DNA of 20,000 nucleotides from IMG/VR virus record IMGVR_UViG_3300021958_000055. One strand, given 5' to 3'. Shown here piece by piece: positions 3,743 through 19,987 of the stretch (position 1 is its first letter; each line of letters starts with the position of its first letter). The notes under the pieces are model-generated. The model saw only the letters and a program-made list of their open reading frames with translations. It was not told the origin of the DNA and ran no database searches. A program made the position numbers and the translations under genes. Source of the DNA: an uncultured virus (IMG/VR IMGVR_UViG_3300021958_000055) (taxonomy: Duplodnaviria; Heunggongvirae; Uroviricota; Caudoviricetes).

Positions 3743-4068
3743 TGAGTATACTGAGAGATCAGGAATCTGACGGAACTAAATACTTCGTAGAAGCTGATGG
3801 AAAAATAACAGTTAAAAGATCACAAGACGTTAATCCTATTCTTCAAAAGAATAAAAGATTATATAACCTTAATGATGGTTATTCTCAAACAAAAGATATT
3901 AAACGTGTAGCTAGTATTCCAACTATGGTTTTAGAACTATGGGCTAGAGAATATAATGGAACTAATAATTGGTGGAGAATACCAAAAGAAGAAAGAACAA
4001 AGATTTTAAAGTTAAAATTAAACAGTAGCGAATATCGTTATTTTAGAACAGCATCAGGAAGAATGTAA
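3742..4068 (+). CDS. Conserved phage head-module protein of unknown function
   Basis: TAATG coupling to the upstream gene. Motifs QDV.PIL..NK, RVASIP..V...W and LN..EYRYFRT..G. Confidence 0.7.
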   Translation: MSILRDQESDGTKYFVEADGKITVKRSQDVNPILQKNKRLYNLNDGYSQTKDIKRVASIPTMVLELWAREYNGTNNWWRIPKEERTKILKLKLNSSEYRYFRTASGRM

Positions 4069-4733
4069 TGGCATTATCAACATATACAGAACTTAAATCA
4101 TCAATAGCAAATTTCTTAAATAGATCAGATTTAACAACTGAGATACAAGATGATTTTATAAAACTTACTGAAGCTGATTTTAATGCTAAGCTACGTATAA
4201 GACAAATGGAACAGAATGATGATGTTACAATTAATGCTGAAACAGTTGCAGTACCATCAGGATTTATTGCTGTAAGATCATTTCATATATTATCAGCTGA
4301 TACTAAGTATCATTTAGAATATATAACACCAGGAAATTTATTTGAAATCAAAGGAGGATCTACATCAGGTATGCCAAGAACATACACGATAGAGTCTGAT
4401 AATGGAACAGAAAGTTTTAGATTTGCCCCACAACCTGACACAAGCTATACAGGAAAGCTTCAATACTATAAAGCTTTTGATGCTTTATCTGATAGCAATA
4501 CAACTAATTACATTTTATCTAGCCATCCTTCTATTTACTTATATGGCTCATTGTATCACGCAAGTAATTTCATCGGTGGTATCGATCCTAACCAAACGCA
4601 ACAATGGCTAGGTATGTATTCAGCATCTCTTGAGAGATGTGAGAATAACGATAGACAAGATTCATATGGATCTGCACCTGTTGTTCAAAGAACAGACGTA
4701 AGTACAGATCTATCATTCTATAGGAGAAAATAA
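4068..4733 (+). CDS. Head-tail adaptor / tail tubular protein A-like
   Basis: Y.ELK.SIA.FLNRSDLT...DFI.L.EA.....LR.R.ME, FAP.PD..Y...L.YY and L..HP.IYLYGSL. Position before the nozzle-like gene. Confidence 0.8.
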   Translation: MALSTYTELKSSIANFLNRSDLTTEIQDDFIKLTEADFNAKLRIRQMEQNDDVTINAETVAVPSGFIAVRSFHILSADTKYHLEYITPGNLFEIKGGSTSGMPRTYTIESDNGTESFRFAPQPDTSYTGKLQYYKAFDALSDSNTTNYILSSHPSIYLYGSLYHASNFIGGIDPNQTQQWLGMYSASLERCENNDRQDSYGSAPVVQRTDVSTDLSFYRRK

Positions 4734-6199
4734 TGCAGATACCTTTTGGAGAGTGGCTACCTGATCAACCTAAACATTTGAATCCAGGTGCTAACGTAGC
4801 AACAAATGTATATTATGCATTAAATTCTTATAAAAGATTTCCTTCATTGGTAAGCTATAGTTCTAATAATATTGGAGCTGATGCTAGAGGTGGTGGATCA
4901 TTTAGAGATAATGCTGGTAATGTATATAACTTTGTTGCAAAGAATACAGACATCTATCAATTAGATGGTGGTACATTTACTTCTAGAAAAGGATCTCTTA
5001 CAGGTACAAATACAGACTACTGGACATTTACACAGTTTGGTAATTATGTGATAGCAAGTAATGGTGTTGATGCACCTCAATATTATTTAATGGGAACATC
5101 AACTAATTTTGCTAATCTTTCAGCAATAGCAACATCTGGAACTGTACCTACATTTAGAGTTTCAGGTGTAGTTAGAGATTTTTTAATAACAGGTAATCAA
5201 CCTACAAATCAAAATAGAATACAATGGTCAGGTATCAATGACATTACTACTTGGTTAGCAGGAACTAAACAAGCTGATCAACAAGATCTACCAGGTTCAG
5301 GTGGTGAGATTGTACATATAACTTCAGGCGAATATGGATATGTTTTTAGACAAAATCAAATCATTCGTATGGACTATGTGGGTGGTGCAACAGTATTTAG
5401 ATTATCAGTTATATCTCCTAATAGAGGAGCTGTTTATGGTAAGACTGTAGCACAAGATAATAGACGAGTTTTCTTCTATGCTGATGACGGATTTTTTGAA
5501 ATACAAGGAGATAGTGTTATCTCAATAGGAGCTGAGAAAGTTAATAGATTTTTTGACCTTGATTTAAACAAGGCATTTGCTGATAGAATATGTGCAGCTG
5601 TAGACCCATTTAATCAATTAGTTATGTGGCTTTATCCATCAGCACAAAATACTAATAATACAACTGGTATTTGTGATAGAATTATCATATATAATTATGC
5701 TACTAAAAAGTGGTCTCTAGCAGAAGCTAATGCTAGTTTTATATTTAGCCAGTTTGTAGGAGCTTATACAGTAGAGCTTATGGATATTATCTCTCAAAAC
5801 CTTGAGAATATTAATATAGCTTTAGATACTGATTTTTGGTCAGGTGGACAAAGGTTTTTAGGAGCTATAAATAACTCTTACGAAGCTGCAATTTTCAGTG
5901 GAACTTCTAATGAATCTGAGATAGAGACTTCAGAAGTTGAGATATTTCCTGGTCATAGATCTTCTATAACTGGTGTTAGACCAATAGTAGATGCTCAAGC
6001 AACTGTAACTATTAAAACTAGAGATAGACTTGCAGATACAGAAACAGAATCTAGCTCAGCGACTATGACAAATAGTGGTATTAATCCTGTAAGACAATCA
6101 GGAAGATACTTTAGAGCAAATGTCAAAGTACCAAGTGGTACGATATTTAATCATGGTCAAGGGATAGATATAACATTTGTTAAAGCAGGTTTAAGATAA
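4733..6199 (+). CDS. Tail nozzle / head-closure protein (tail tubular B or P22 gp10-like)
   Basis: 488 aa starting IPFGEWLPDQP, with repeated beta-propeller-like segments (W.FTQFG, RIQWSGIND, QDLPG.GG, FF.A.DGF) and ending RQSGRY.R. Confidence 0.8.
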   Translation: MQIPFGEWLPDQPKHLNPGANVATNVYYALNSYKRFPSLVSYSSNNIGADARGGGSFRDNAGNVYNFVAKNTDIYQLDGGTFTSRKGSLTGTNTDYWTFTQFGNYVIASNGVDAPQYYLMGTSTNFANLSAIATSGTVPTFRVSGVVRDFLITGNQPTNQNRIQWSGINDITTWLAGTKQADQQDLPGSGGEIVHITSGEYGYVFRQNQIIRMDYVGGATVFRLSVISPNRGAVYGKTVAQDNRRVFFYADDGFFEIQGDSVISIGAEKVNRFFDLDLNKAFADRICAAVDPFNQLVMWLYPSAQNTNNTTGICDRIIIYNYATKKWSLAEANASFIFSQFVGAYTVELMDIISQNLENINIALDTDFWSGGQRFLGAINNSYEAAIFSGTSNESEIETSEVEIFPGHRSSITGVRPIVDAQATVTIKTRDRLADTETESSSATMTNSGINPVRQSGRYFRANVKVPSGTIFNHGQGIDITFVKAGLR

Positions 6200-6288
6200 T
6201 GAAATTTATTTTAGGTTTAATAGAAAAATATTCATCTAAGTTAAATGTTTGGGCTTGGAATAAAAGATGGAATAAACGTGACAGATAG
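6199..6288 (+). CDS. Unannotated 29-aa Trp/Lys-rich micropeptide MKFILGLIEKYSSKLNVWAWNKRWNKRDR
   Basis: ATG overlaps the upstream TAA (TAATG) and the ORF fills the gap between flanking genes. It shares 13/23 identical residues, without gaps, with the peptide at 19719. Confidence 0.75.
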   Translation: MKFILGLIEKYSSKLNVWAWNKRWNKRDR

Positions 6289-6427
6289 AACAGATATAGA
6301 TAACGTAAGATATAGTTTTGAGACACAAGAGTTTTTTCAAAGACAAATTGAAGAAGCTATTAACACATTAATTAACGAAAAAAATACAGAAAATAATAAA
6401 GCATATGCTTGGTTTATAGGAGAATAA
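6278..6427 (+). CDS. Small tail-associated protein (49 aa; GTG start at 6278 preferred over ATG 6245)
   Basis: In-frame GTG at 6278 is preceded by GGA and overlaps the end of the micropeptide. Helical acidic peptide ending AYAWFIGE. Confidence 0.65.
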   Translation: MTDRTDIDNVRYSFETQEFFQRQIEEAINTLINEKNTENNKAYAWFIGE

Positions 6428-6428
6428 A

Positions 6429-8060
6429 ATGGCAGGTATAAAAGATTATAGTACAACAGCAGCAAGTAATACTTCAGTAGGAGGTGTTTCTATAGCTGAA
6501 GGTATGTTACCTTCAAATATTAATAATGCATTTAGAGCTATTACTGCTGATATTAGAGAATGGTTTAATGATTCACAATGGGTAGAATATGGTGATGGTG
6601 ATGGAGCATTTACAGCTGCATACGCATCTTCAACTTCTTTTACAATTGCAGGAACTGATGTTACATCTTTCTATCATGCTGGTAGAAGAATTAAATTAAC
6701 TGCAACAACTCCAGGTACAATTTTTGGAACAATATCTAGTTCTTCATTTTCTACAAACACAACAGTAAATGTAACTTGGGATAGTGGATCTTTATCTAAT
6801 GAAGCAATCTCAAATGTATATGTAGGTATTTTATCTAAAACTAATGATGCTATTCCAACAGGTATTGGAGCAACAAAAATTGCTGATGGTTCAGTATCTG
6901 ATACAGAGTTTCAACATCTTAATGGTGTTACTTCAGCTATTCAAACACAATTAAATGCTAAACAAGCAACTATTACTGGATCTGCTACAACAATAGATAC
7001 AGAGTCTTTAACAGCTAATAGAGCTGTAATATCTAACGGATCTCAAAAGATTGCAGTATCAGCTACAACAGATACTGAATTAGGATATTTATCAGGAACT
7101 ACATCTGCTGTTCAAACTCAATTAGATGCAAAAAATGTAAAAGCAAATAATTTAAGTGATGTTGCTTCAGCTTCAACAGCAAGAACAAACTTAGGTTTAG
7201 CTATAGGAAGTGATGTTCAAGCATATGATGCACAGTTAGCTGATATTGCAGGATTAACTCCAACAGACAGTAATTTTATTGTAGGAGATGGATCTAATTT
7301 TACAACAGAAACTGGAGCAACTGCTAGAACTTCTTTAGGACTTGGAACGATTGCAACTCAAGATGCTAATAGTGTTGCTATAACAGGTGGATCAGTAACA
7401 GGTATGTCTGCACCTTCATCAGCATCAGATGTAACAACAAAAAGTTATGTAGATGATTTAGTTGCAGGACTTAAAACTAGAATTATTACAAGAGTAGCAA
7501 CAACAGCAAACGTAAACTTATCAAATGCTTTAGAAAATGGTGATACTTTAGATGGAATTTCACTAGCAACAGGTAATAAAGTTTTAGTTAAAAATCAAAC
7601 AGATGCTACAGAAAATGGTATTTATTTAGTTCCAGCAAGTGGTGCAGCAAGTAGAGATCCAGATTTTAATACAGTAGATGAATTAGCTGGTCAGCTTGTT
7701 ATCATACAAGAAGGAACAACAAACGAAGATACAATATTTTTATGTACAACAGATACTGGTGGTAGCATTGGTAGTGTAAATATTACATTTACACAAGTAC
7801 AACCTCAGTTTACTGGAACAGTAAGTTCAGTAGCTGTAGCAGACGCAGGATCATCAGAATTTACAGTAACAGGTTCTCCAATAACTACATCAGGAACAAT
7901 TAATTTAGCAGTTAATAGTATATCAGCAGCTAAAATTGGTAATGGAGACGTAGATAATACAGAATTAAGTTATGTAAATGGAGTAACTTCAGCAATACAA
8001 ACACAAATAGATAATAAAGCTGGAGCAGGATTTGCGATTGCAATGGCGATAGCATTATAA
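6429..8060 (+). CDS. Long tail fibre protein
   Basis: Ser/Thr/Gly/Ala-rich. N-terminal I.DYSTTA..N......IAEGMLPS.INNA.R anchor, three TE..(Y/H)L.G.TSA.QTQ repeats, ARTNLGL/ARTSLGL repeats, an RVATT.N...DG......VLVKNQT..TENGIY fibre module and a C-terminal GFAIAMAIAL. Confidence 0.85.
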   Translation: MAGIKDYSTTAASNTSVGGVSIAEGMLPSNINNAFRAITADIREWFNDSQWVEYGDGDGAFTAAYASSTSFTIAGTDVTSFYHAGRRIKLTATTPGTIFGTISSSSFSTNTTVNVTWDSGSLSNEAISNVYVGILSKTNDAIPTGIGATKIADGSVSDTEFQHLNGVTSAIQTQLNAKQATITGSATTIDTESLTANRAVISNGSQKIAVSATTDTELGYLSGTTSAVQTQLDAKNVKANNLSDVASASTARTNLGLAIGSDVQAYDAQLADIAGLTPTDSNFIVGDGSNFTTETGATARTSLGLGTIATQDANSVAITGGSVTGMSAPSSASDVTTKSYVDDLVAGLKTRIITRVATTANVNLSNALENGDTLDGISLATGNKVLVKNQTDATENGIYLVPASGAASRDPDFNTVDELAGQLVIIQEGTTNEDTIFLCTTDTGGSIGSVNITFTQVQPQFTGTVSSVAVADAGSSEFTVTGSPITTSGTINLAVNSISAAKIGNGDVDNTELSYVNGVTSAIQTQIDNKAGAGFAIAMAIAL

Positions 8061-8073
8061 TAAAAGGAGTAAT

Positions 8074-8400
8074 ATGGCACAAAACTTTAGACGATACACA
8101 AGCAATGATGTAGGAGCATCAGCTGCAACATTATTCACAGCAAACAGTTATGATACTGTTGTTGGAATATCTGTAGCAAATGTAACAGCATCAGCAGTGA
8201 ACGCATCTGTTTACATTAATGATGCATCAAATGATATTTATCTTATCAAAGATGCACCTATACCTGCTGGTTCAGCTTTACAAGTATTAGATGGTGGAGC
8301 TAAATTTGTAGTTCAATCAGGTGATGCTTTAAAAGTTGTTTCTGATACAGCATCTTCATTAGATGTTTGGGTATCAACAGTAGACGATATTAGTTCATAA
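8074..8400 (+). CDS. Small beta-sandwich tail-fibre-associated protein
   Basis: 108 aa with RBS AAGGAG. Shares N-terminal MA.., ..(V/I)(A/T)N and V(V/L)..GDALK motifs with 12282..12623. Confidence 0.65.
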   Translation: MAQNFRRYTSNDVGASAATLFTANSYDTVVGISVANVTASAVNASVYINDASNDIYLIKDAPIPAGSALQVLDGGAKFVVQSGDALKVVSDTASSLDVWVSTVDDISS

Positions 8401-8412
8401 GGAGAATAACAA

Positions 8413-9144
8413 ATGGGATATGTAGGTAAAAAACCAACAGCAGCACCTTTAACTTCAAGTGATGTTACAGATGGAATTATATCTAATGCAAAATTAGCAC
8501 AAGATATTATTTCTGCTGAAACTGCTTTAACTTCTGAACCAGCTGATACAGATGAGTTTATTTTATCTGATGCTGGAACTTTAAAAAGAATTGATTACAG
8601 TTTAATTAAAGGTGGTGGAGGATTAGTTCCTTTATCACACACAACTATTTCAAGTTCTACAGCCAGTGCTGCATTTACTTCAGGCATTGATAGCACTTAT
8701 GATGCTTATAAATTTGTTCTTTCAGGTGTAAGACCTGTAACAGATGACGTAGATTTTCATTTATTATTTTCGGTTGATGGTGGATCAAGTTATCTTAGTA
8801 GTAGTTATAAGTATTCAGTAACATCAAGAGATTCAGGTACAAATGTAGAAGATGGAAGCAGTGATACTGCTAGTTTTATATTACTTACAGGTGATGATGT
8901 TGGAAGTGAATCTGATGAAAGTTTTAATGCAGAAATGGTTTTATATCATCCATCAAATACTACTTTTCATAAGCAAATAGCTTTTCAAGGTGTTTATTAC
9001 GATCATGCTGCTTTACCTAATTACTTTTTAGGAATGGGAGCAAATTCAGGTTCTGTTGCGGCAGTAAATGGTATTAAATTTCAATTTGCTAGTGGCAATA
9101 TAGCAGAAGGTAGTTTTACAATGTACGGAATAGCAAAAGCATAG
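8413..9144 (+). CDS. Putative tail fibre tip / receptor-binding protein, paralogue 1
   Basis: MGYVGKKP N-terminus, DTDEF..SDAG.LKRIDYSLIKGGG anchor, then a ~170-aa domain (FTSGIDSTY..Y.F, S.DGGSSY, SGNI..G...MYG). Confidence 0.7.
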   Translation: MGYVGKKPTAAPLTSSDVTDGIISNAKLAQDIISAETALTSEPADTDEFILSDAGTLKRIDYSLIKGGGGLVPLSHTTISSSTASAAFTSGIDSTYDAYKFVLSGVRPVTDDVDFHLLFSVDGGSSYLSSSYKYSVTSRDSGTNVEDGSSDTASFILLTGDDVGSESDESFNAEMVLYHPSNTTFHKQIAFQGVYYDHAALPNYFLGMGANSGSVAAVNGIKFQFASGNIAEGSFTMYGIAKA

Positions 9145-9154
9145 GAGATAAATT

Positions 9155-10135
9155 ATGGCATATATAGGTAGAGAACCAACAATAGGAAACTTTCAAGTCT
9201 GCGATGCTATTAGTGTAGTTAATGGTCAAGCTGCATATACGATGCAAGTATCATCTGTAAATGTAGTACCTGAAACAGCTAACCACATGATCGTATCTTT
9301 AAATGGTGTTATTCAAGCACCTGGTAGTTCTTATACTGTATCAGGTTCAACGATTACATTTGCATCGAACCTTGTAACAGGTGATGTTATAGACTTTATT
9401 CATATACTAGGATCAGTTCTTGATCTTGGTGTACCAAGCGATGACACAGTAACAGCAGCTAAAATATCTTCTAATGCTGTGACAGGTGCTAAATTAAATA
9501 CAGATGTTATATCAGCTCAAACTGCTTTGGCTACTGCACCTGATGATACTGATGAGTTTTTAGTTAGTGATGCTGGGGTTTTAAAAAGAATTGACTATTC
9601 ACTTATTAAAGGTGGTGGACAATGGGAATTTATTTCTGAACTAACAGGTTCTTCATCAACTTCGACACTAGATTTTACAACCTTATCTACTGACTATAAA
9701 GATTTTTGTTTTTCAATGCAAAATCTGCATCCTGAAAGTGATAATGTAAGAGTATATATGAGAGTATTTACTGGTACTGGTGGATCACAGGCAATTGATA
9801 GTGGTGGTAATTACGGATATGCTGGAATAGTAAGATTTGATAGCACAACCACAGGTAATGGTGAATCACAAAATCAAATATATATTACTGACCTAGTAGG
9901 AAATGCCGATACGGAAAATGCTGCAGGAGAAGTTTTTTTATACAATCCACATGAAACAACATTTCATAAACTTATAAAATCACATTCTGTTACTATGAGA
10001 AATGATAGTGTTGTTGGTATTGGTAATTACGCTGGTAAATATAATAGTACTGTAGCAGTTACTGGTGTTAGATTTTATTTTTCTGCTGGTGAAATAAGTG
10101 GCAAAATAGCAATGTACGGCAGAAAACGATCATAG
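9155..10135 (+). CDS. Putative tail fibre tip / receptor-binding protein, paralogue 2
   Basis: MAYIGREP N-terminus, an extra V.LNGV.Q.P...YTVSG.TITF module, the same anchor as paralogue 1 and a divergent copy of the C-terminal domain. Confidence 0.7.
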   Translation: MAYIGREPTIGNFQVCDAISVVNGQAAYTMQVSSVNVVPETANHMIVSLNGVIQAPGSSYTVSGSTITFASNLVTGDVIDFIHILGSVLDLGVPSDDTVTAAKISSNAVTGAKLNTDVISAQTALATAPDDTDEFLVSDAGVLKRIDYSLIKGGGQWEFISELTGSSSTSTLDFTTLSTDYKDFCFSMQNLHPESDNVRVYMRVFTGTGGSQAIDSGGNYGYAGIVRFDSTTTGNGESQNQIYITDLVGNADTENAAGEVFLYNPHETTFHKLIKSHSVTMRNDSVVGIGNYAGKYNSTVAVTGVRFYFSAGEISGKIAMYGRKRS

Positions 10136-10144
10136 GAGTAATCA

Positions 10145-10744
10145 ATGGCTCTTAACTTTGCTAACAACAATTCCTTATCAGCAATCACAGCAATACCAGC
10201 TAGTATTAGTGGTGGTGGATTAAATTTAATATCTACACAGACAGCTAGTAGTAGTGCTAATTTATCTTTTACAAGTGGAATAAACAGTACGTACAAGGAA
10301 TATATTTTTAAGTTTTATAATATTCACCCATCAGCAACTTCTAATTTAACTTTTCAAGGTAGCACAAATAATGGCAGTTCTTATGGAGTTACTATTACCT
10401 CATCATTCTTTCAAGCTGAACATTCTGAAGCTGGAACAAATCCAGCATTAGGTTATCAAACATCAAGCGATTTAGCACAATCAACTGCATTTCAAAGAAT
10501 ATTTAGTAGTGTAAGCACAAATGCTGATGATAGCGGAAGTGGAACTTTACACTTGTTTGAACCATCAAGCGACACATTTGTGAAGCATTTTATATCAACA
10601 TCAAGCAATGTTGCTAGTGCTTATGAACAAAATTCATATATGGCAGGATATTTTAATTCTACGTCTGCAATAAATGCCATTCAATTTAAAATGTCATCAG
10701 GCAATATAGATTCAGGAGTTATAAAATTATATGGCGTTAGTTAA
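10145..10744 (+). CDS. Putative receptor-binding protein, paralogue 3
   Basis: MAL..ANNNSLSAIT leader plus the shared domain (TASSSA..SFTSGI.STYKEY.F.F.N.HP, LFEPSSDTFVKHF, MSSGNIDSG.IKLYG). Confidence 0.7.
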   Translation: MALNFANNNSLSAITAIPASISGGGLNLISTQTASSSANLSFTSGINSTYKEYIFKFYNIHPSATSNLTFQGSTNNGSSYGVTITSSFFQAEHSEAGTNPALGYQTSSDLAQSTAFQRIFSSVSTNADDSGSGTLHLFEPSSDTFVKHFISTSSNVASAYEQNSYMAGYFNSTSAINAIQFKMSSGNIDSGVIKLYGVS

Positions 10745-11345
10745 ATACAATAACAATTCTATAAGTGCTATTACTGAAACAGGTTTAGCAACAGGTTCAT
10801 TAGTTTTAATTAAAACTCAAACTGCATCAGGTGATACTGCTGTTGATTTTACTCATGGAACAAATGACGTAGTATTTGATGGAACATATAACACTTATGT
10901 TTTTAAATTTATTAATATTCATCCATCTACTGAAAACATTGGTTTCAGTTATAATTTTAGTACAGATGGTCAAGCAACTGCAGCTGTTAAAACAACTGTT
11001 GCTTGGAGATCATTTCATAATGAAAGTGGAAGTGGTGGAGTATTAGATTATCAATCTGCTAAAGATGTAGCAAATGCGGCTGGAGATCAACCTATTACTT
11101 GGGATATGGAAAGTGATGATGATGCTTCTGTTTCAGGTGAACTTTTTGTTTTTTCACCTGCTTCAACTACGTTTGTTAAACATTTTATGCATCAATCAAA
11201 TGGTATACATTCAAACCCAGCTTGTTTTACAAATTTTTCTGCTGGATATGTTAATGTTACGGCAGCAGTTAATTCTGTTAGATTTTTAACAACATCAAAT
11301 ACATTTGATGGAACAATTAAACTATATGGATTAAAAGAAAGTTAA
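10731..11345 (+). CDS. Putative receptor-binding protein, paralogue 4
   Basis: MALVKYNNNSISAIT leader plus the shared domain (F.FINIHPS, FSP.STTFVKHF, DGTIKLYG). 14-nt overlap with paralogue 3. Confidence 0.7.
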   Translation: MALVKYNNNSISAITETGLATGSLVLIKTQTASGDTAVDFTHGTNDVVFDGTYNTYVFKFINIHPSTENIGFSYNFSTDGQATAAVKTTVAWRSFHNESGSGGVLDYQSAKDVANAAGDQPITWDMESDDDASVSGELFVFSPASTTFVKHFMHQSNGIHSNPACFTNFSAGYVNVTAAVNSVRFLTTSNTFDGTIKLYGLKES

Positions 11346-11346
11346 G

Positions 11347-11952
11347 ATGGCAATAGTTAAATTAAATAACAGAGCAGTAAAAGATGCAACAGCTTTTGGT
11401 AGCATAACAGGATTAGGTAATTTAGTTTTTATATCTAAACAAACTGCCAGTTCATCTGCTAGTGTTAGCTTCACATCAGGTATTGATAGCACTTACAAAG
11501 AATACATATTTTTTTTTTATAATATGCACCCAGCTACTGATGGAGCAAACGTAACTTTTAATTTATCAACCGATGGTGGTTCTAATTATAATGTTACAAA
11601 GACTACTACATCTTTTAATGCTTATCATGGAGAAAGTGGTTCTCCAGCAGGTTTAGGTTATGATACAGGTGATGATCTTGCACAAAGCACAAATTATCAA
11701 ACAATAGCTACAGCGATAGGAAGTGATGATGACCAAAATACCTCAGGTTATCTTCACCTTTTTGATCCATCAAACGACACATTTGTAAAACATTTTATAG
11801 CAAAATCAAATGTAAGTAATTTAAATGATAGAAGTGTTAATTGTTTAACTGCTGGCTACGGAAATACTACGTCAGCAATTAATGCAGTAGATTTCAAGAT
11901 GTCGTCAGGCAATATAGATGCTGGCGAAATAACACTTTTCGGAGTAGCTTAA
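11347..11952 (+). CDS. Putative receptor-binding protein, paralogue 5
   Basis: MAIVKLNNR leader plus the shared domain (FTSGIDSTYKEY, STDGGSNY, LFDPSNDTFVKHF, MSSGNIDAG.ITLFG). Confidence 0.7.
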   Translation: MAIVKLNNRAVKDATAFGSITGLGNLVFISKQTASSSASVSFTSGIDSTYKEYIFFFYNMHPATDGANVTFNLSTDGGSNYNVTKTTTSFNAYHGESGSPAGLGYDTGDDLAQSTNYQTIATAIGSDDDQNTSGYLHLFDPSNDTFVKHFIAKSNVSNLNDRSVNCLTAGYGNTTSAINAVDFKMSSGNIDAGEITLFGVA

Positions 11953-12647: not shown

Positions 12648-13091
12648 ATGGAATTAGTTAGAATACCTGTCAAAGAACTTGATAAGGTTTGGGCAATCGT
12701 AGAAAAAGATATTAAAAATGCTCTAGCTTATTCAAGTCAACTTACTAGCTCAGATTTTGTTTTAAATAAAACCAAAGAAGGAAAGTTTCAAATTTGGGTT
12801 TTATGGGATAAAACAAAACCTACATCAGTAGAAAAATATTTTGGTGTAGTCGTAACTGAGATTATAAAAAGACAGTTAGGAAAAGTTTGCCACATATATA
12901 TTATGACCGGTAAACAAAGACACAAATGGCAACATTTAGTCAAAGACATTGAGCAGTTTGCAAAAGACGAAGAATGTCAAATGATGGAATTAATTGCTAG
13001 ACCAGGTTGGAAAAAAGTTTTAAACAATTTTGGTTATAATATGACTCATGTTGTATTAGAAAAAAAAATTAAACAAGAGGAGAAAAAATGA
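12648..13091 (+). CDS. GNAT-fold-like protein preceding the ejection genes (positional analogue of P22 gp14 / T7 gp13)
   Basis: GVVVTEI.......CHI....G.....W......IE.FAK...C..MELIARPGWKKVL...GY pattern. Located directly before the internal virion genes. Confidence 0.65.
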   Translation: MELVRIPVKELDKVWAIVEKDIKNALAYSSQLTSSDFVLNKTKEGKFQIWVLWDKTKPTSVEKYFGVVVTEIIKRQLGKVCHIYIMTGKQRHKWQHLVKDIEQFAKDEECQMMELIARPGWKKVLNNFGYNMTHVVLEKKIKQEEKK

Positions 13092-13795
13092 GTTTTGGAG
13101 GAGGATCATCAGGAGGTGGTCAAACAACTACACAATCAGTTCAACCTTACGCAGCAGCACAACCAGCATTAAATCAAATTATTTCAGAAGCAGGTCAACT
13201 TTATGCTCAAGGTCCACAAGCAGCAGGTTATGTTGCACCTACAACTCAAACTTTAACAGGTCTTGCACAACAAGAACAATTAGGAACAGCAGCACAACAA
13301 CAATTAGCTGCAACTCTTGGCGGACAATATTTAAATCCTTTTCTTTCACCTTTAATACAAAAATCTGCTGGAGATATTTATACTAATGTAGCTCAACAAT
13401 TTAGTGGAGCAGGTAGAACACCTACATCACCATTAGCACAACAACAAGTAACTTCTCAAGTTGCTCAAGCTGCTTTACCTTTAGCTTTTCAACAATACGA
13501 TGCTGAAAGAGCTAGACAATTAGGTATTGCAACAAGAGCTCCTTCATTATTACAAACAGGTCAACAATTAGAACAAATACAAAGACAACAAAACTTAGCA
13601 CCAGCTCAAGCCTTACAACAATATGCTGGTTTAGTTTCACCTATTGCATCAGGCTTTCCTGTAACAGCAGGTCAAGTAGATACAAGAGCAAACCCATTAA
13701 CAACTGCAGCAGGTGGAGCATTAATAGGTTCTGCTATTCCTGGTGTAGGACCATTAATAGGTGCTGGAGCAGGATTATTAGGAGGATTACTTTAA
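13088..13795 (+). CDS. Small ejection / DNA pilot protein
   Basis: MSFGGGSSGG..TTTQ..PY start, Gln/Ala-rich body, NP(F/Y)L and F..AGR motifs, and a C-terminal glycine zipper (GGALIG...GAGAGLLGGLL). Confidence 0.7.
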   Translation: MSFGGGSSGGGQTTTQSVQPYAAAQPALNQIISEAGQLYAQGPQAAGYVAPTTQTLTGLAQQEQLGTAAQQQLAATLGGQYLNPFLSPLIQKSAGDIYTNVAQQFSGAGRTPTSPLAQQQVTSQVAQAALPLAFQQYDAERARQLGIATRAPSLLQTGQQLEQIQRQQNLAPAQALQQYAGLVSPIASGFPVTAGQVDTRANPLTTAAGGALIGSAIPGVGPLIGAGAGLLGGLL

Positions 13796-13914
13796 TGGAT
13801 AAAATAAGAAAGATCATGTATGACTTTGACATTAAGATACAAAAAAATCCTAGCAAAGCCTTAATAGGAATGTTTATAGCTTTTTGTTTAGTTATTATAA
13901 TTTTTGGAGGTTAA
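13795..13914 (+). CDS. Unannotated 39-aa single-pass membrane peptide MDKIRKIMYDFDIKIQKNPSKALIGMFIAFCLVIIIFGG
   Basis: TAATG coupling, preceded by GGAGGA. Fills the gap exactly and stops just before ATG 13916. Hydrophobic C-terminal stretch. Confidence 0.7.
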   Translation: MDKIRKIMYDFDIKIQKNPSKALIGMFIAFCLVIIIFGG

Positions 13915-13915
13915 T

Positions 13916-14806
13916 ATGAGTTCAGGTTCAGGATCTGATTCTGGAAGTTCAGGCGAAGTAACAGCAGATTACTATGGTCCAGATTCTTCATTAGTAGATG
14001 AAGTTGCTTTAACTGGTGGTTCAACTTATTCAACAGGTTTTGAAGGATCACCTGAATTAGGTGGTCAAGGAACTAGAACTGAAACAACGTATGGAGGTGG
14101 TGATGATAATTTTAGTAATGGTGACGATATTGATGCTACTTACACAACAGGAACAGAGTTTAATGTAACACCAACTCAAGAACAAACATTTGGTGATAAA
14201 GTTACAGATTATATTACAAGTGGTGGTTTAATAGGTGCAGGTATTAGAACTGTATCAGATATTTTTGGAACACCTGAAAATCAATATGCTGGTATTACCG
14301 GTGAAGATGGATATGGAGAGGGTGATTATGTTTCTACCCTTGACGACTTTGCAGAATCAAGAGGTTTAGGAACATCTTATGCTGATTTAGATTTAGAGGG
14401 TCAAGCATTTATAGATCAAGAAGCATTTAATGCAGGTTACAGATCACCAGCTTTTCAAGACTTATATCAATCAGGAGATACTCAAAACATACAAAATTTA
14501 AATCAACCTGAGTCTGACTTAGTGAAACAACTTATCCCCCAAGCACCTTTTGCTATAAGTGGTGGTCAAGCACCTAAATCTATGGTAAACGATTATTTTG
14601 CTAATATAGGTAATCAATCAGGGCTTTCATCTCAGTTAGAAAGCGACTATAATGCTGCAAAAGCTAATGTAGCACAAACTATGGCTATTACCCCTTTAGC
14701 ACAACAGTTTGGCTACTCTACGCAGCCGTATGGAGCTTTAACGGCACAAAATTTAGGTACGAACCCTTTTAACATTCCGTATCTACAAACAAGAGGATTA
14801 ATATAA
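13916..14806 (+). CDS. Acidic Gly/Ser/Asp-rich putative internal virion protein (ATG 13916 preferred over 13904)
   Basis: GGAGG RBS just upstream of ATG 13916. Low-complexity acidic N-terminal half. Lies within the ejection module. Confidence 0.6.
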   Translation: MSSGSGSDSGSSGEVTADYYGPDSSLVDEVALTGGSTYSTGFEGSPELGGQGTRTETTYGGGDDNFSNGDDIDATYTTGTEFNVTPTQEQTFGDKVTDYITSGGLIGAGIRTVSDIFGTPENQYAGITGEDGYGEGDYVSTLDDFAESRGLGTSYADLDLEGQAFIDQEAFNAGYRSPAFQDLYQSGDTQNIQNLNQPESDLVKQLIPQAPFAISGGQAPKSMVNDYFANIGNQSGLSSQLESDYNAAKANVAQTMAITPLAQQFGYSTQPYGALTAQNLGTNPFNIPYLQTRGLI

Positions 14807-15783
14807 TGGCAATAGAAGATAATAGATTTAGAAAAATGTTGATGATGGACTACGCAACCAAACAACAACAAAAAGGATTGTTAGATCAACCTCAAGTTGG
14901 AGGAGGTTTATTAAATAATTTAGGAAATATAAATCCTAATATTTTAATTGGTGCAAGTATTGCTGGTCAAGGATTAAAAGGTCAAGATCCTTTTAGTTCT
15001 TTAATACCTGCTGTAACTCAAACTGCACAAATACAACAATTACTAAGACCTAAAAGTAGAGGAACTAAATCTGTATATAATCAAAAAACAGGTAAAACAG
15101 AATTTGCAACTGAACAAGATATTGCACAAAACCCTAATTTAGTACCTGTACCTACAGGCACAGTAACAAGATTTAATACTGAAACTGGTCAAGTAGAAAT
15201 TTTACCAGCAGGTTTAGCAGGACAACAAATTAAAGATCAAACAAAAGCAAAGGGTTTAGAAACTCAATACAATATTTTAACAGAATTTATTGGCGATATG
15301 AAAACAAGATTACCTAAAACAAAAACAGGAGTTGTTGGTGTAGGTTACGCTGTAGCTGAAGGTTTTGCAGATCAAACTTCACAATTAGCTGAAAGTTTAG
15401 GTGTTAAAAATACATTAATTATAGAAGATACAGAAGCTATTGATAAATATTTAAAATCAAAAGGTTTTACAGAAGGTGCAAAAAATTATGCAACAATGAA
15501 ATCTTCAGTAACTAATTTAGGATATGCTTTAGCTAAAATTGCTGAACCTAATAATCCAAGATTATCTGAAGGGGATATTATAAGACAATTAAATAGAATA
15601 AATTTTGGTGGTTCAAGAGAAGTATTTTCTTCATCTTTAGATCAAATTTTAAAAGAAGAAGGTATAAGAGCTAAAGCAGAAATAAAATCATTAGGTGGAG
15701 ATATTTCAATTTTTGAACCTAAAAAGAAAAAGAAAAAAGAAGAAGGTAAACCAGAAGGTTACGATCCTTTAGGTATTTTATAA
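14806..15783 (+). CDS. Putative ejection / internal virion protein
   Basis: GLL-repeat, Gln-rich N-terminus, A....P..RLS.GD motif and C-terminal DPLGIL, typical of mid-size podovirus ejection proteins. Confidence 0.65.
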   Translation: MAIEDNRFRKMLMMDYATKQQQKGLLDQPQVGGGLLNNLGNINPNILIGASIAGQGLKGQDPFSSLIPAVTQTAQIQQLLRPKSRGTKSVYNQKTGKTEFATEQDIAQNPNLVPVPTGTVTRFNTETGQVEILPAGLAGQQIKDQTKAKGLETQYNILTEFIGDMKTRLPKTKTGVVGVGYAVAEGFADQTSQLAESLGVKNTLIIEDTEAIDKYLKSKGFTEGAKNYATMKSSVTNLGYALAKIAEPNNPRLSEGDIIRQLNRINFGGSREVFSSSLDQILKEEGIRAKAEIKSLGGDISIFEPKKKKKKEEGKPEGYDPLGIL

Positions 15784-15784
15784 T

Positions 15785-18469
15785 ATGTCATCTATAGCTG
15801 ATTATAAAAAACAGCATCCTGAGTATGCAAATATACCTGATATAAAATTGGCTGAAACTTTGTATGAAAAAGCATACAAAGGAAAAATTGATGAAAGTGA
15901 TTTTTATAAACAAGCATTTCCTAATATAGCTTCTAAAAGACTTAGTGAAGAAATTATATTTCCTGATGATGAATTTGGAAGTAATTTTGAATTTAAAGAA
16001 ACAGAATCAAAATTTAAACCTATAACATCTGAAATAGCTAAAGTTTCTGGTGTTGCTGTAAATGATCCTGCTTCAAGTAAAGCAAGATTTGGTGCTTCAT
16101 TAGGTTATAATCAAGAACAAAAAAAATTGGCAGTAAAAAATAGTTTATCAAAATTATATAATCAAGATGTAGATGTAAGAGTAGGTCCTAATACAGGAGA
16201 GTTAGAATATTATAATCCTAAAACTAAACAATATGCTTTAGTAGATGCACCAGGAGTTGATTTAGGTGATTTTGCAGATTTAGGAGGAGATGCTATGATT
16301 GTTATTCCAGATTTAGTTGCAACGATTGGTGTAGGAGCTGCAACAGGAGGTGCAGGAGGAATAGCGGCAGGTGCTTTAGCTGCAGGTGCAGGTGAATATG
16401 CAAGATTAAAATTAGGTCAAAAACTTTATAACATAAATGAAGATTTAACAGATCAAGAATTATTTAATGAAGCTCTTAAAACAGCAGGAATATCTCTTGC
16501 TGCTGGTACTGCTGGATTAGCAGTTGCTAATACTATTAAAGGTGTAAACAATTTAATCAAAGGAAGAATAGTTGGAGATGATGCTTTAAAAGTTTTAGAT
16601 GATGTAAAAGAACCTGATCAAATAGCTAAAACTATAAATGACACTTTAGATAAAGCTAACATAAACTCAAAAGTTAAATTTACTTTAGCACAAGCTATAG
16701 ATGATGCTGATATGTTATCAACTCAACAAGCATTTGAAAATGTAAAAAGACTTGGTTACATGAACGAATTTAGAGAATTTGGTAGAAATCAAGCAACAGC
16801 ATTAAATGATTATTTTACTGTTTTAAAATCTGGTTTTGGAACAGGTTCAGGAACTAAACCAATAAATACTTTTGATGCAGGTGTTTTAATTCAAGATGTT
16901 GTTAAAAAAAGACAAAATCCTGTTATACAAAATATTATTAAAAAACAACAACAATCAGAAGAATTACTTACAAAATCTATATTTAGACTACCTGATGGAA
17001 GTTCAAAAGTAACTGGTGTTGAAGCTAGATCAATTATAAATGATTTAGGAAAAACTTATAAACAAAATGTAGATAAAGCAGGTAAAGCGTTAGATGCTGC
17101 AACAGGTCTTAAAATGATAGATGCAGATGAAATAGCAAAAGCTCTTAAAACTCTTACAGAAAAAGAAAAAAGAAATTTAATTAGTGTTGCAAAGACAGAA
17201 GGTATATTTAAACCTGGTATTTATAAAGATTTATTATCTCCAAATGCAAAAATTATGCTTACTGATGTAAGAGAAACTATGCAAACTTTAGGAAAAAAAA
17301 TTAGAGATAAAGAAGTTGGTAGTGTTACCGGAGAAACAGTTGATGTAGGTAATTTAAAATTTTTAAATAATGCCTTTAGAACACAAGTTAAAAAAAACGC
17401 AGGAACAGAATATTTAAATGAATTAGAAAAATTTAATACTTTAGTTATAAATAATAAACAATTATTAAATAATCAAACTTTATCAAAATTAACTTCAATA
17501 GAAAATGGTATATTAAAAGTTGCAGATGAAGATGTTTTTGCAGAAACATTTAAAAGAGGTACAGGATCAGGAAAAACAGCAAGAGAAATATATGATGTAA
17601 TTAGTCAATCTCCAGATGCTTTGACTGCTTATAAAAATTCTATATATGATTTTTATAAAAGAAAAGTTTTAAAAGATAATGTTCCTAATTTAACAAGACA
17701 TAAAGCATTTATGCAAGACTACGAAGCACCTTTAAAACAATTTTTTTCACCTGCAGAGTATAGCAAAATTACTAGAATTGGTGGTTTGAAAAAATCTGTA
17801 GAAGATTTAACAAAATTAAGAAAAACAACATCTGATAAGTTAATAAAATCATTTGAGGGAAGATTAGAAACTTTAGCTCCACAAGAAATATTTAATAAAA
17901 TTTACAAACCAAATAATATTGGTGAAATTATAAAACTTAAAAACATTCTTAAAAATGATCCTGAGGTTTATAGAGCGTTTCAAAGAAATGTATTAACTGA
18001 TTTAAATGAAAGAGTTATGGCAACTTCAGACAGATTAGGAATGAAAATTATAAGTCCAAAAAGATTTGATAATTATTTAAATGGTAGTGGAGGTGAAAGA
18101 GGATATAGAGTGGCTTTAAAAGAAATATTTGGTAAAGAATATATAGGCAATTTAGATATTTTAAATAAAGCATTACAAATTACAGGAAGAAAAGGACCAT
18201 CAAGAGCAGCAGAGGGAACTGTTGGATCTGCGTTTTCTGATTTTATTAGAGCAGGTACAGGTCAATTTACTCTTACAGGTAGATTATTTACAGCTTTTAG
18301 AAGAATCGGAAAAGGTGCAAGAGAAAGAGTTATAGCCAATGCTTTACAAAATCCTCAATCTTTAAAAGAATTAATAGAATTAAGAAGATTAAAACCTAAT
18401 TCAAAAAAAGCTGCTATTATTTTAGGTAAACTTGGAGGAAGTGTATTTACTACTTCTGAAGGAGAATAA
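15785..18469 (+). CDS. Large ejection / DNA-transfer protein
   Basis: 894 aa. N-terminal HPEY..IPD.KLAE.LY.K.Y motif, a hydrophobic Gly/Ala zipper near residues 170-205, then a long Lys-rich helical region. Last gene of the virion module. Confidence 0.7.
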   Translation: MSSIADYKKQHPEYANIPDIKLAETLYEKAYKGKIDESDFYKQAFPNIASKRLSEEIIFPDDEFGSNFEFKETESKFKPITSEIAKVSGVAVNDPASSKARFGASLGYNQEQKKLAVKNSLSKLYNQDVDVRVGPNTGELEYYNPKTKQYALVDAPGVDLGDFADLGGDAMIVIPDLVATIGVGAATGGAGGIAAGALAAGAGEYARLKLGQKLYNINEDLTDQELFNEALKTAGISLAAGTAGLAVANTIKGVNNLIKGRIVGDDALKVLDDVKEPDQIAKTINDTLDKANINSKVKFTLAQAIDDADMLSTQQAFENVKRLGYMNEFREFGRNQATALNDYFTVLKSGFGTGSGTKPINTFDAGVLIQDVVKKRQNPVIQNIIKKQQQSEELLTKSIFRLPDGSSKVTGVEARSIINDLGKTYKQNVDKAGKALDAATGLKMIDADEIAKALKTLTEKEKRNLISVAKTEGIFKPGIYKDLLSPNAKIMLTDVRETMQTLGKKIRDKEVGSVTGETVDVGNLKFLNNAFRTQVKKNAGTEYLNELEKFNTLVINNKQLLNNQTLSKLTSIENGILKVADEDVFAETFKRGTGSGKTAREIYDVISQSPDALTAYKNSIYDFYKRKVLKDNVPNLTRHKAFMQDYEAPLKQFFSPAEYSKITRIGGLKKSVEDLTKLRKTTSDKLIKSFEGRLETLAPQEIFNKIYKPNNIGEIIKLKNILKNDPEVYRAFQRNVLTDLNERVMATSDRLGMKIISPKRFDNYLNGSGGERGYRVALKEIFGKEYIGNLDILNKALQITGRKGPSRAAEGTVGSAFSDFIRAGTGQFTLTGRLFTAFRRIGKGARERVIANALQNPQSLKELIELRRLKPNSKKAAIILGKLGGSVFTTSEGE

Positions 18470-18471
18470 AA

Positions 18472-18678
18472 ATGGCTACTCAATCCCAAAAAAATTCCCA
18501 AGAGATTATAAAACTTCAAGGCGAAATTAAATTGGTAAATGAGAAAATTACAACTATAAAGGACAATCACCTTGCACACCTTGACGCAAAGGTTAATACT
18601 ATTTATAAACTTTTATGGGTAGCTGTAACAATAAGTTTAAGTGGTCTAATAAACTTAGTCGTAAATCTTCTGTCTTAA
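18472..18678 (+). CDS. Coiled-coil plus C-terminal TM protein (XhlA/holin-like, tentative)
   Basis: RBS AAGGAG, heptad N-terminus, NHLAHL motif and hydrophobic tail LLWVAVTISLSGLINLVVNLLS. Confidence 0.55.
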   Translation: MATQSQKNSQEIIKLQGEIKLVNEKITTIKDNHLAHLDAKVNTIYKLLWVAVTISLSGLINLVVNLLS

Positions 18679-18977
18679 AAGGCAAACAATCTTCAATTAA
18701 AGGTACTGTTGGCGAATACGATGCAATCGCAAAACTTACAAAAGCTGGTTACTATGTAGCAAAGAGCTGTGATCCTGCTTGTCCTTTTGATATTGTTATT
18801 GTTGACAAAAATGGTAAAATACAACTTTTAGATATTAAAACAAATACATATCGTAAAAGAGCTAAAGGAAAAATATTAAAGAACAAACCTAAAGGTTCTT
18901 ATAAAATACATAGAACACCAACTAAGGAACAAAAGAAATTAGGCATAAGACTTTTGATGGTAGATTATGAAGATTAA
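18615..18977 (+). CDS. Small PD-(D/E)XK endonuclease (Hjc-like)
   Basis: KG.VGE..A...L...GY.V......PFDIV........LLDIKT provides the E, D and D-x-K catalytic motifs. Start codon uncertain (64-nt overlap with the upstream gene). Confidence 0.75.
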   Translation: MGSCNNKFKWSNKLSRKSSVLKGKQSSIKGTVGEYDAIAKLTKAGYYVAKSCDPACPFDIVIVDKNGKIQLLDIKTNTYRKRAKGKILKNKPKGSYKIHRTPTKEQKKLGIRLLMVDYED

Positions 18978-19335
18978 TGAAAACACAAATGTAAGTATGC
19001 CTTTAAAAAATATGGGTATGATAATTCTTGGCGTTGTAATGGGTGTGGTTGCATACACAGAAGTTACAGCTAGACTTACATCATTAGAAACATCAAGAGA
19101 ATTATTTTCTGCTGATTTACTTAAAAAATCAGAGCAATTACCGGTAGATCAAGAACAGCTAATGCTTTTGGAAAACCTATATAAAACTGTAGAAAAGTTA
19201 GAAAAGAATCAAGAACAAAATATGACTAATAAAGTTAATATACAATTTTTAAAAGACCAAGTAGAGAAAGCATTAAAAGATATTGAAAAATTAAAAGACA
19301 AACAAAGAGAGTTTGCTAATGGTAACGGACACTAA
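18967..19335 (+). CDS. N-terminal TM plus coiled-coil protein
   Basis: Hydrophobic MGMIILGVVMGVVAY followed by long heptad repeats. Confidence 0.65.
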   Translation: MKINENTNVSMPLKNMGMIILGVVMGVVAYTEVTARLTSLETSRELFSADLLKKSEQLPVDQEQLMLLENLYKTVEKLEKNQEQNMTNKVNIQFLKDQVEKALKDIEKLKDKQREFANGNGH

Positions 19336-19504
19336 AAAAGGTATTAAACATAATGGTAAATCAAGACCATTTAATGAAGCCTATAAAAATGGTTGGAATG
19401 AAATATATCTTAATAAAGTATTAAAAGAAGAAGTTGAGATAGGTGCTAATGGCACACAAAAATATGTAATTAAAGAGGGAAAAAATAAAGGTAAAGTATT
19501 ATGA
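19319..19504 (+). CDS. Small basic hypothetical protein (ATG 19319 likely)
   Basis: In-frame ATG two codons after TTG 19313. Motifs GKSRP.N..Y..GW.EI and G.NGTQ.Y.IK.G.NKGK. Confidence 0.55.
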   Translation: MVTDTKKGIKHNGKSRPFNEAYKNGWNEIYLNKVLKEEVEIGANGTQKYVIKEGKNKGKVL

Positions 19505-19719
19505 TTGTTCAAGGCGTTGTAGCTTTATGTATGTTTATTAATGGTGAGTTAAAAGAACATAGAATACAACCAGCTATGTCTGATTGTTTAAAAGGTAAAA
19601 GAGAAGCTAGTAGAGATTTAAAATCCAACATGGAATATAAATGTGGTAAAGTTCAAGCCGAATTAGAAACCAATATAGATGGCAGTAAATCTATAAAGAA
19701 AATTATTAAGGATGAATAA
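19501..19719 (+). CDS. Small Cys-containing hypothetical protein
   Basis: ATGA coupling. VVALCMF.NG.L.EH, MS.CLK.KR.A.R and Y.C motifs. Confidence 0.65.
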   Translation: MIVQGVVALCMFINGELKEHRIQPAMSDCLKGKREASRDLKSNMEYKCGKVQAELETNIDGSKSIKKIIKDE

Positions 19720-19823
19720 TGGATTTTATATACAGAATTATAGAAAAGATCAGTTCAAAAATAAGTACATGGTGTTGGCACAAAAGAGTTAATTTACTTT
19801 ACAAAAAAAGAGATAAGAAATGA
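19719..19823 (+). CDS. Unannotated 34-aa Trp/Lys-rich micropeptide MDFIYRIIEKISSKISTWCWHKRVNLLYKKRDKK
   Basis: TAATG coupling with AAGGA upstream. Paralogous to 6199..6288. Confidence 0.75.
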   Translation: MDFIYRIIEKISSKISTWCWHKRVNLLYKKRDKK

Positions 19824-19921
19824 ATATAGGATTTAGACCATCACCTTCTCAACCTAACCCACCTATGAATCGGAAACTGTTGAAAACTGTTGTTATTGAT
19901 GAATCTAACAAGGAGAAACCC

Positions 19922-19987
19922 ATGAAATACATTAAAAAATTATGGAAAAAATATATGGACTGGTTGTTCAAAGACTTTTATAAATAA
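19922..19987 (+). CDS. Unannotated 21-aa cationic amphipathic peptide MKYIKKLWKKYMDWLFKDFYK (or a 55-aa form from ATG 19820)
   Basis: AAGGAG lies 6 nt before ATG 19922. The same frame is open from ATG 19820, which overlaps the previous stop (ATGA). Confidence 0.6.
   Translation: MKYIKKLWKKYMDWLFKDFYK

Follow-up and report, generated by a model that had tools for sequence, protein, structure and literature searches.

Two WxW micro-genes at gene junctions of an uncultured virus very probably belong to one phage-restricted peptide family

Few viruses on Earth rival pelagiphages in abundance, and no function is known for most of their genes. Phage accessory genes are familiar as 'morons' and as the small open reading frame (ORF) cassettes of hyperplastic regions, which are gained and lost between conserved genes and passed from one phage to another. 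Short helical peptides that bind membranes are familiar as well, and include lambda CIII and B. subtilis SpoVM, both inhibitors of FtsH. Here we describe two micro-genes, A and B, in a 20,000-nucleotide (nt) stretch of DNA from an uncultured virus (IMG/VR record IMGVR_UViG_3300021958_000055), called the window throughout, together with the peptide family in which they appear to belong. This family resembles morons in its accessory-ORF behavior, but its cassette has no promoter or terminator of its own and is spliced in at ATGA or TAATG overlaps. Its products are comparable in size to CIII and SpoVM, helical by prediction and partly amphipathic, a likeness that may serve only as a lead.

The described system that the family may work most like is disruptin, gp28 of phage phiKT. 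According to its report (10.1101/515445), disruptin is a 56-amino acid (aa) protein of charge +7, predicted to be helical and lacking transmembrane (TM) and signal sequences. It is membrane-associated and disrupts the outer membrane at lysis; its phage lacks spanins, and the peptide complements a spanin defect. Set against that description, the family is a putative counterpart, alike in being small, cationic, free of TM segments, phage-encoded and often near lysis genes. The family differs in that only half of the peptide is amphipathic, in its invariant polar residues and in lying often outside lysis cassettes, and the likeness is one of description. Unlike the disruptin phage as portrayed there, the phages of this family carry putative spanin-like candidates (phrog_20984, with an N-terminal hydrophobic segment). 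The leaderless bacteriocins of the A53/lacticin Q type resemble the family as cationic, Trp-rich and, for the family putatively, membrane-active peptides, and lacticin Q has a local KYGSK...WAW resemblance. These bacteriocins have 51–53 aa and conserved Trp21 and Trp32 (PMC11580447), whereas the family members are single predicted helices of 29–55 aa from phages of a Gram-negative host. Kinship with lacticin Q was rejected as chance, the match having an E value of 0.39 with profile A3 and being absent at E ≤ 10 with the type-A profile A4.

Micro-genes A and B are almost certainly genuine protein-coding genes of one phage-restricted family, judging from the sequences of the two and of their relatives. 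Both were read directly from the window, where a preliminary description of this DNA had placed and translated them correctly:

6199..6288, plus strand: micro-gene A, 29 aa (MKFILGLIEKYSSKLNVWAWNKRWNKRDR), type A; family profile E 4e-16
19719..19823, plus strand: micro-gene B, 34 aa (MDFIYRIIEKISSKISTWCWHKRVNLLYKKRDKK); family profile E 2e-17

These profile values come from a six-frame search of the window and the collected loci and are partly circular, since the profile contains both peptides; independent support for the family therefore comes from the homologues elsewhere. Each micro-gene starts in a TAATG overlap with the stop codon upstream, A after 4733..6199 and B after 19501..19719. The peptides align without gaps at 13/23 identity, with KRD near both C-termini, and shared residues use different synonymous codons (Lys AAA/AAG, Ser TCA/AGT), all as first described; a further Ser pair is TCT/TCA. 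BLASTP aligns the two as paralogues with 17/33 identity and an E value of 1e-9. It had also been remarked that neither ORF is in the ORF list, which is so, the list being limited to ORFs of at least 60 aa. The word 'hidden', however, overstated the case: relatives are annotated coding sequences (CDSs) in GenBank phages, and the exact product of A is public on 21 contigs (P0034).

Selection was assessed on 99 distinct genes from the window and the loci, or 98 in the aligned columns, where the L081 relative that shares only the N-terminal module was left out. The core residues E, W, W and R are invariant in 98/98 aligned genes, and the codons vary beneath them: E is GAA (90) or GAG (8), and R is AGA (85), CGT (8), AGG (3) or CGA (2). 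The core D and K are each retained in 90/98. Across the contiguous core, stop codons and the ratio of non-synonymous to synonymous polymorphism (pN/pS) separate the coding frame from the two others:

Coding frame: stop in 0/95 genes, pN/pS 0.55
Frame +1: stop in 91/95 genes, pN/pS 0.94
Frame +2: stop in 94/95 genes, pN/pS 1.15

Pooled over all match columns, pN/pS is 0.47 for 53 type-A genes and 0.45 for 46 type-B genes, and the median pairwise ratio of non-synonymous to synonymous divergence (dN/dS) is 0.36 and 0.31, respectively; with synonymous sites close to saturation, all these ratios are upper-side estimates. At positions 6245–6277 the window, L034 and L083 show three differences; by eye, each leaves the micro-ORF product unchanged and alters that of the 6245 frame. 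The proposal of protein-level selection on a dispersed family is thus borne out, with pN/pS well under the other-frame values, dN/dS not near 1, and the open frame and the Trp motif kept in the homologues.

The family extends well beyond the window. Among 50,697 phage records, tblastn found CDSs with the same motif, annotated 'hypothetical protein', in HTVC100P, the Skadi isolates, Lederberg and HTVC024P, and further ones in two uncultured Autographiviridae and phage 023Pt_psg01. The best match to A is KT997847 cds37, 69% identical to it over 26 aa (E 4e-5). A is nearer to this gene than to B (52% over 33), and the two window copies are therefore read as anciently diverged or separately acquired, not as a recent duplication. 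A five-member profile recovered 49 clusters at E ≤ 0.01 among 52 candidates in a protein collection at 90% identity, the product of A included. A profile search run exhaustively over 1.84 billion representatives yielded 122 clusters (50% identity) at E ≤ 1e-3, of which 17 reached E ≤ 1e-10, and nearly all of the 122 are 28–110 aa long. In IMG/VR, 254 of 432 pattern matches encode relatives, and with the type-A pattern 55 of 111 do; the best 80 of the 254 and all 55 of type A were analyzed. Prokaryotic species genomes (185,579) yielded only 2 matches, each on a contig from a single-cell-style assembly, and one of these contigs is as long (32,453 bp) as an IMG/VR viral contig among the collected loci.

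No Pfam, PHROG or NCBIfam model matches any family member, and the ESM Atlas returned only unnamed 'hypothetical protein' clusters with scores of 0.75–0.80, below the lead threshold. A description of the family was not found in the literature searched, nor was any paper with the string WAWNKRW, and the examined text of a pelagiphage paper (10.1101/2019.12.14.876532) does not discuss the family genes. The family is new to that literature and to the family databases, with members already deposited as hypothetical proteins.

The family core is D-x6-E-x4-K-x3-W-x-W-x2-R, followed by a basic tail, and the products are 28–60 aa long. Both window copies carry E9, K14, W18, W20 and R23 of this core, and in A a Lys replaces the usual Asp at position 2. 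Two subtypes are recognized. Type A reads ...IEKYSSKLNVWAWNKRWNKR... and is frequently extended by GTGY or WIKGYRxWKK, and type B reads MIDxFxYxFFGxLDNxxSxxETYSIKxTxWCWHSRVxLLxKKRKRK. A is of type A, and B joins the short N-terminus of type A to a type-B-like C-terminal half. Members in named records are HTVC100P gp27 (QPZ53589.1), Skadi-6 gp35 (UWJ03785.1), Lederberg_60 (QOI68953.1), URG13093.1 of phage 023Pt_psg01 and cds37 of uncultured Chosvirus KM23C739 (ANS05507.1). Pelagivirus S35C6 BAQ94147.1 is probably another on sequence grounds, with a match of only E 1 and without the otherwise invariant E and R. These named relatives share core motif, size and basic tail with A and B but occupy other genomic positions, and those of type B have at the N-terminus an additional segment, MIDxFxYxFFGxxD, absent from the window copies. 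The tandem upstream neighbor of KT997847 cds37, cds36, has a hydrophobic C-terminal tail; it was considered as a paralogue and rejected at just 2.3 bits against the profile.

Single copies are found in HTVC100P, Skadi-6, KT997847 and the near-complete IMG/VR genomes G002, G003 and G007, and HTVC106P has no copy; two copies in the window are therefore unusual. In loci that extend two genes or more to either side, members lie exactly at junctions in 55 distinct ±2-gene contexts, in keeping with the early suggestion of dispersal at gene junctions. The commonest context is among phrog_2524, phrog_38283, phrog_20984, phrog_24646, phrog_32989 and endolysin genes. Others are the junction of a nozzle-like gene and gp55, sites beside the gene for single-stranded DNA-binding protein (SSB), between scaffold and capsid, before the small terminase, and upstream of a GroES-like gene in a genome type of roughly 60 kilobases (kb). 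A divergent member without E and R lies between the α and β subunit genes of ribonucleotide reductase (RNR). The loci with the GroES-like gene were at one point labeled T4-like myophage, a label dropped once phage 023Pt_psg01, a complete record, proved to have a circular genome of 59.8 kb. Of 15 GenBank phage records matching a type-B query, 14 are Pelagibacter phages and one has no known host. Among isolates with a named host, it is highly probable that the family occurs only in Pelagibacter phages. From this distribution we hold, with very little doubt, that the family forms a small accessory cassette in at least four unrelated marine phage genome types, usually one per genome and present or absent among close relatives. 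It is one of few genes common to otherwise unrelated pelagiphage genome types.

Copy A offers a view of how such a cassette sits in a junction. The features around it are as follows:

4733..6199, plus strand: 488-aa virion structural protein, phrog_3287, upstream of micro-gene A
6197..6278, plus strand: inserted cassette of 82 nt with flanks ...TTTAAGA / insert / TGACAGA..., boundary ambiguous by 1 nt
6278..6427, plus strand: 49-aa gene with a GTG start, homologue of HTVC106P gp55, appearing as 6245..6427 in the ORF list
6429..8060, plus strand: tail-fibre-like protein, 543 aa, phrog_11518 and others

In HTVC106P the stop codon of the 488-aa gene overlaps the start of gp55 (49 aa) as ATGA, and no micro-ORF lies between them. 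The 488-aa protein has at least 587 relatives in IMG/VR; of the best 80, which we surveyed, 70 were scorable, the gene end lying outside the locus in 7 and too little downstream sequence being present in 3. The micro-gene is present at 10/70 junctions, and the other 60, with a direct overlap or a gap of 0–31 nt, include relatives with 88–89% identity in the C-terminal 120 residues of this protein. Alignment places the window insertion at 6197..6278 (82 nt), so that A, proposed earlier to have been inserted at a gene junction, is a clean 82-nt insertion relative to close relatives. The insertion turns the start of the 49-aa gene from ATG to GTG, the A of ATG being replaced; L034 and HTVC106P have ATG. 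In L152 and L157 the old ATGA has become the micro-gene start and a new (A/G)TGACAGA follows the insert, and the cassette is therefore bounded by short repeats of junction sequence. As read from these alignments, copy A regenerates stop/start overlaps on both sides, its TAG stop lying 11 nt inside the 49-aa gene (an 11-nt overlap).

The earlier placement of A between nozzle and tail fibre holds in part. A does lie downstream of a nozzle-like gene, but the conserved 49-aa gene (6278..6427) precedes the fibre. Its homologues were matched in 69/70 scorable loci, between the nozzle-like gene and the tail fibre, with no family hit, and they start at the equivalent of 6278. The 'nozzle' label for the product of 4733..6199 is taken from position only, after an SU10-type adaptor gene.

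Forms with and without the micro-gene coexist in the same samples, as seen in contigs of public runs. In record 9 of X15, a metatranscriptome contig of 975 nt bridges 5700–6346 with the micro-gene present, although an RNA library may contain DNA and the contig is not proof of transcription. Other contigs in X1, X15 and X16 fit only from 6279 and are preceded by ...AAGA, the insert-free form. The RNA runs X16 and X18 hold only short pieces starting at or after 6279, uninformative on expression of ORF A. In one public contig outside the window (P0052), the called gene joins the micro-ORF with the gp55 frame before changing frame once more, probably owing to a frameshift that arose in assembly or sequencing at the A-rich run AAAAGATGG.

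Copy B occupies a different kind of site, in a late cluster of small membrane proteins that in relatives borders an endolysin:

18967..19335, plus strand: phrog_20984 protein, 122 aa, N-terminal hydrophobic segment at about 11–37
19313..19504, plus strand: phrog_32989 small protein, recurring beside family members
19501..19719, plus strand: phrog_24646 protein, 72 aa, upstream of micro-gene B, with a hypervariable slot 3' of the gene
19820..19987, plus strand: 55-aa ORF of no known family, in ATGA overlap with micro-gene B

For site B, the phrog_24646 gene (72 aa) has at least 571 relatives; the survey took the best 80, 79 of them scorable. A full family member follows in 2/79, both 100% identical to the window in the 72-aa protein. 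In 5/79 a gene like HTVC106P gp36 follows (one flagged by the profile, four by eye), with the N-terminal MIDKxxYxFxGWLD module only and then a Cys-rich tail. In the other loci of the survey (which spans L232–L311), roughly a dozen different genes take the slot, among them genes for M15-type endolysins, for membrane proteins like phrog_2524, and for small proteins that are either highly basic or signal-peptide-like. This junction behind the phrog_24646 gene is a hot spot of plasticity.

Both micro-genes are most likely made late, by translational coupling, because they have no promoter of their own and overlap the stop and start codons of their neighbors. In 5900–6600, no sigma-70-like promoter was found against 4.1 expected, and the sole terminator-like site falls within the upstream gene. 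Micro-gene B has an ATGA stop/start overlap with the next ORF and an AAGGA 8–12 nt upstream of its ATG. That the genes would be late-expressed, as the preliminary description put it, is drawn from operon position only.

B was modeled by AlphaFold2 (31-row alignment) as a single helix over residues 2–33 with a mean predicted local distance difference test (pLDDT) of 92, which for so short a peptide says little beyond 'helical'. Across 11 members the maximal 19-residue Kyte–Doolittle hydropathy is 0.27–1.02 (A, 0.43; B, 0.27) against a threshold of 1.6, so no TM segment is present. By eye, no Cys-containing lipobox was seen in family sequences. A holin, antiholin or spanin identity, which needs a TM segment or lipoprotein signal, was rejected on the same hydropathy values. 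A homing endonuclease or other self-mobile gene was likewise rejected, with no nuclease or recombinase domain from Pfam, PHROG or NCBIfam in products of 28–60 aa.

Net charge is +6 to +9 across scored members, and the description 'cationic' was apt for both A (+6) and B (+7). Its companion 'amphipathic' applies to the N-terminal half at profile level, where 2/5000 shuffles matched columns 1–20 and 138/5000 matched columns 13–30; it fails for the WxW/basic part (3836/5000) and is not convincing for single peptides. Trp makes up 6.1% of family residues and 0.9% in 157 small non-TM neighbor proteins used as controls. The best 19-residue Wimley–White interfacial energy, computed with scale values from the literature, has a median of −2.64 kcal/mol in the family and +2.72 in the controls, 14% of which reach the family median. 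The invariant residues may be symmetric about residue 16 (D2/K30, E9/R23), a pattern that would hint at an antiparallel dimer, and the invariant E and R suggest an additional specific contact, with the peptide itself or with a partner. A homodimer prediction for B (two copies, alignment A3) scored 0.02, short of the mark of 0.42 needed for a verdict.

What the peptide might do is weighed here among several readings. As a tentative model, possible though short of probable, it would be an accessory peptide that binds the membrane peripherally and acts on the host envelope. The product would form one continuous α-helix that does not span the membrane, with the amphipathic N-terminal half and the Trp/Lys/Arg-rich C-terminal half seating it in the anionic membrane interface. 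There it could act late in infection, either as a lysis accessory, for example by destabilizing the outer or inner membrane or by tuning a holin-type protein, or as a block to superinfection. We arrive at this envelope reading because of the physico-chemistry of the peptide, a modest enrichment of TM neighbors and the endolysins nearby, with endolysin-type genes 1–4 genes away in HTVC100P, Skadi-6, Lederberg and L080. Several findings weigh against it. The neighbor enrichment is modest and its loci are not independent samples (small TM proteins are 55/220 genes within ±2 of a member and 47/304 elsewhere in the same loci; odds ratio 1.8, p 0.007). The holin- or spanin-like character of these neighbors is a matter of hydropathy alone, and Pfam at E ≤ 10 assigned no holin or spanin family to the recurrent membrane neighbors. 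Many copies lie far from lysis genes, at nozzle/fibre, SSB, RNR, GroES-like and scaffold/capsid sites. Within the peptide, the WxW/basic C-terminal half is not amphipathic, W18 and W20 point to opposite sides of the single helix, and about 560–585 of 1000 own shuffles match the amphipathicity of A, and 56–73 of 1000 that of B. Most of the invariant residues, moreover, are polar (E, R, D, K), as would be expected of a specific binding interface more than of a peptide that damages membranes non-specifically.

That last point leads to a somewhat unlikely alternative, in which the helix docks through its invariant E/W/W/R face onto a SAR11 host protein, for host takeover, as a protease or division inhibitor, or against a defence, much as other small phage helical peptides hit one host protein. 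Such a binder would account for polar residues and two Trp kept in 98/98 while the rest varies, for a family found in phage genome types that are otherwise unrelated and for which every named host is Pelagibacter, and for presence or absence among close relatives at hot-spot sites typical of accessory host-interaction genes. Positions ranging from early-looking to late modules also mean that no fixed phage partner gene is evident. Yet the high positive charge and Trp content are equally explained by lipid or nucleic-acid binding, and a stable specific inhibitor of 29 aa would be very small. Binding to nucleic acid, with the basic aromatic C-terminal half on DNA or RNA and the N-terminal half self-associating, as in a small regulator or a packaged or condensing protein, appears quite improbable. 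The net charge of +6 to +9 with K/R-rich tails such as KKRKRK would suit it, as would frequent extremely basic small neighbors (HTVC100P gp28, and DUF6321 proteins upstream in 8 distinct contexts) and the place of copy A within the virion structural module. But Pfam, PHROG and NCBIfam recognize no DNA- or RNA-binding domain, the tail is highly variable in length and sequence while the conserved part is the less basic core, and no conserved DNA or RNA partner site was seen, no systematic search for one having been made. It is scarcely credible that the peptide has no function and is a junction filler or translational-coupling adaptor, or that conservation at site A is owed to the frame 6245..6427. 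Both ORFs do bridge two genes by start/stop overlaps, and that frame is open across part of ORF A. The codon analysis largely refutes this, however: the peptide core is kept in 55 different contexts, other frames have stops in nearly all genes and pN/pS near 1, and the 6245–6277 substitutions are synonymous in the micro-ORF frame only, the downstream homologues starting at the equivalent of 6278.

A bolder proposal, which we regard as unlikely, is that of a promoter-less cassette that splices into ATGA/TAATG junctions, is common to most major SAR11-phage lineages and hits one SAR11-specific component, of the envelope or an essential host protein. If true, it would amount to a common host-takeover or superinfection-exclusion effector in the most abundant virus–host pair of the ocean, here in two diverged copies. 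Less a surprise than an ecologically widespread and tractable unknown, the family is clearly under purifying selection, and its members are small enough for chemical synthesis, which opens direct functional tests despite difficult SAR11 genetics. The with/without polymorphism at the nozzle/fibre junction in the same samples provides natural isogenic-like comparisons, and site A is a worked example of phage gene gain that leaves translational coupling undisturbed.

The window itself is, by sequence comparison, the late (structural) region of a podovirus related to HTVC106P, a Pelagibacter phage that aligns to 74% of window positions 4000–9000 at 74% identity. Its genes run from portal, scaffold and major capsid through the SU10-type adaptor and the 488-aa virion protein to tail-fibre-like genes, then large proteins without a family match (13088..18469) and a run of small genes. 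One further feature precedes site A:

4068..4733: SU10-type adaptor gene, PF24175

Regions homologous to the window fibre gene are annotated tail fibre in other pelagiphages. Five successive genes at 8413..11952 all match phrog_14820 (243, 326, 199, 204 and 201 aa) and are a tandem array of paralogous tail-fibre-associated proteins. The small-gene cluster opens with a 68-aa protein at 18472..18678 that has a hydrophobic C-terminal segment (46–68) and, by eye, a charged, helical-looking N-terminal part. It has a weak match to phrog_937 'hemolysin' (E 0.007) and is possibly a holin-like or XhlA-like lysis protein. The phrog_20984 protein, which recurs as a neighbor of family members, is by eye long, charged and coiled-coil-looking beyond its N-terminal segment.

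Two minor points concern the surroundings of micro-gene B. The C-terminal MKYIKKLWKK... stretch of the 55-aa ORF after B was considered as a family member and rejected at −0.9 bits against the profile. Inside the same ORF, an AAGGAG followed by an ATG at 19922 would yield a 21-aa Trp/Lys-rich peptide (MKYIKKLWKKYMDWLFKDFYK). Finally, HTVC106P gp36 (L089:1360–1557) and L081:5649–5816 have only the N-terminal MIDKxxYxFFGxxD module in common with type B, followed by unrelated tails, that of gp36 being Cys-rich. The module thus seems to be reused, and a gp36-type gene fills the slot held by micro-gene B in the window.

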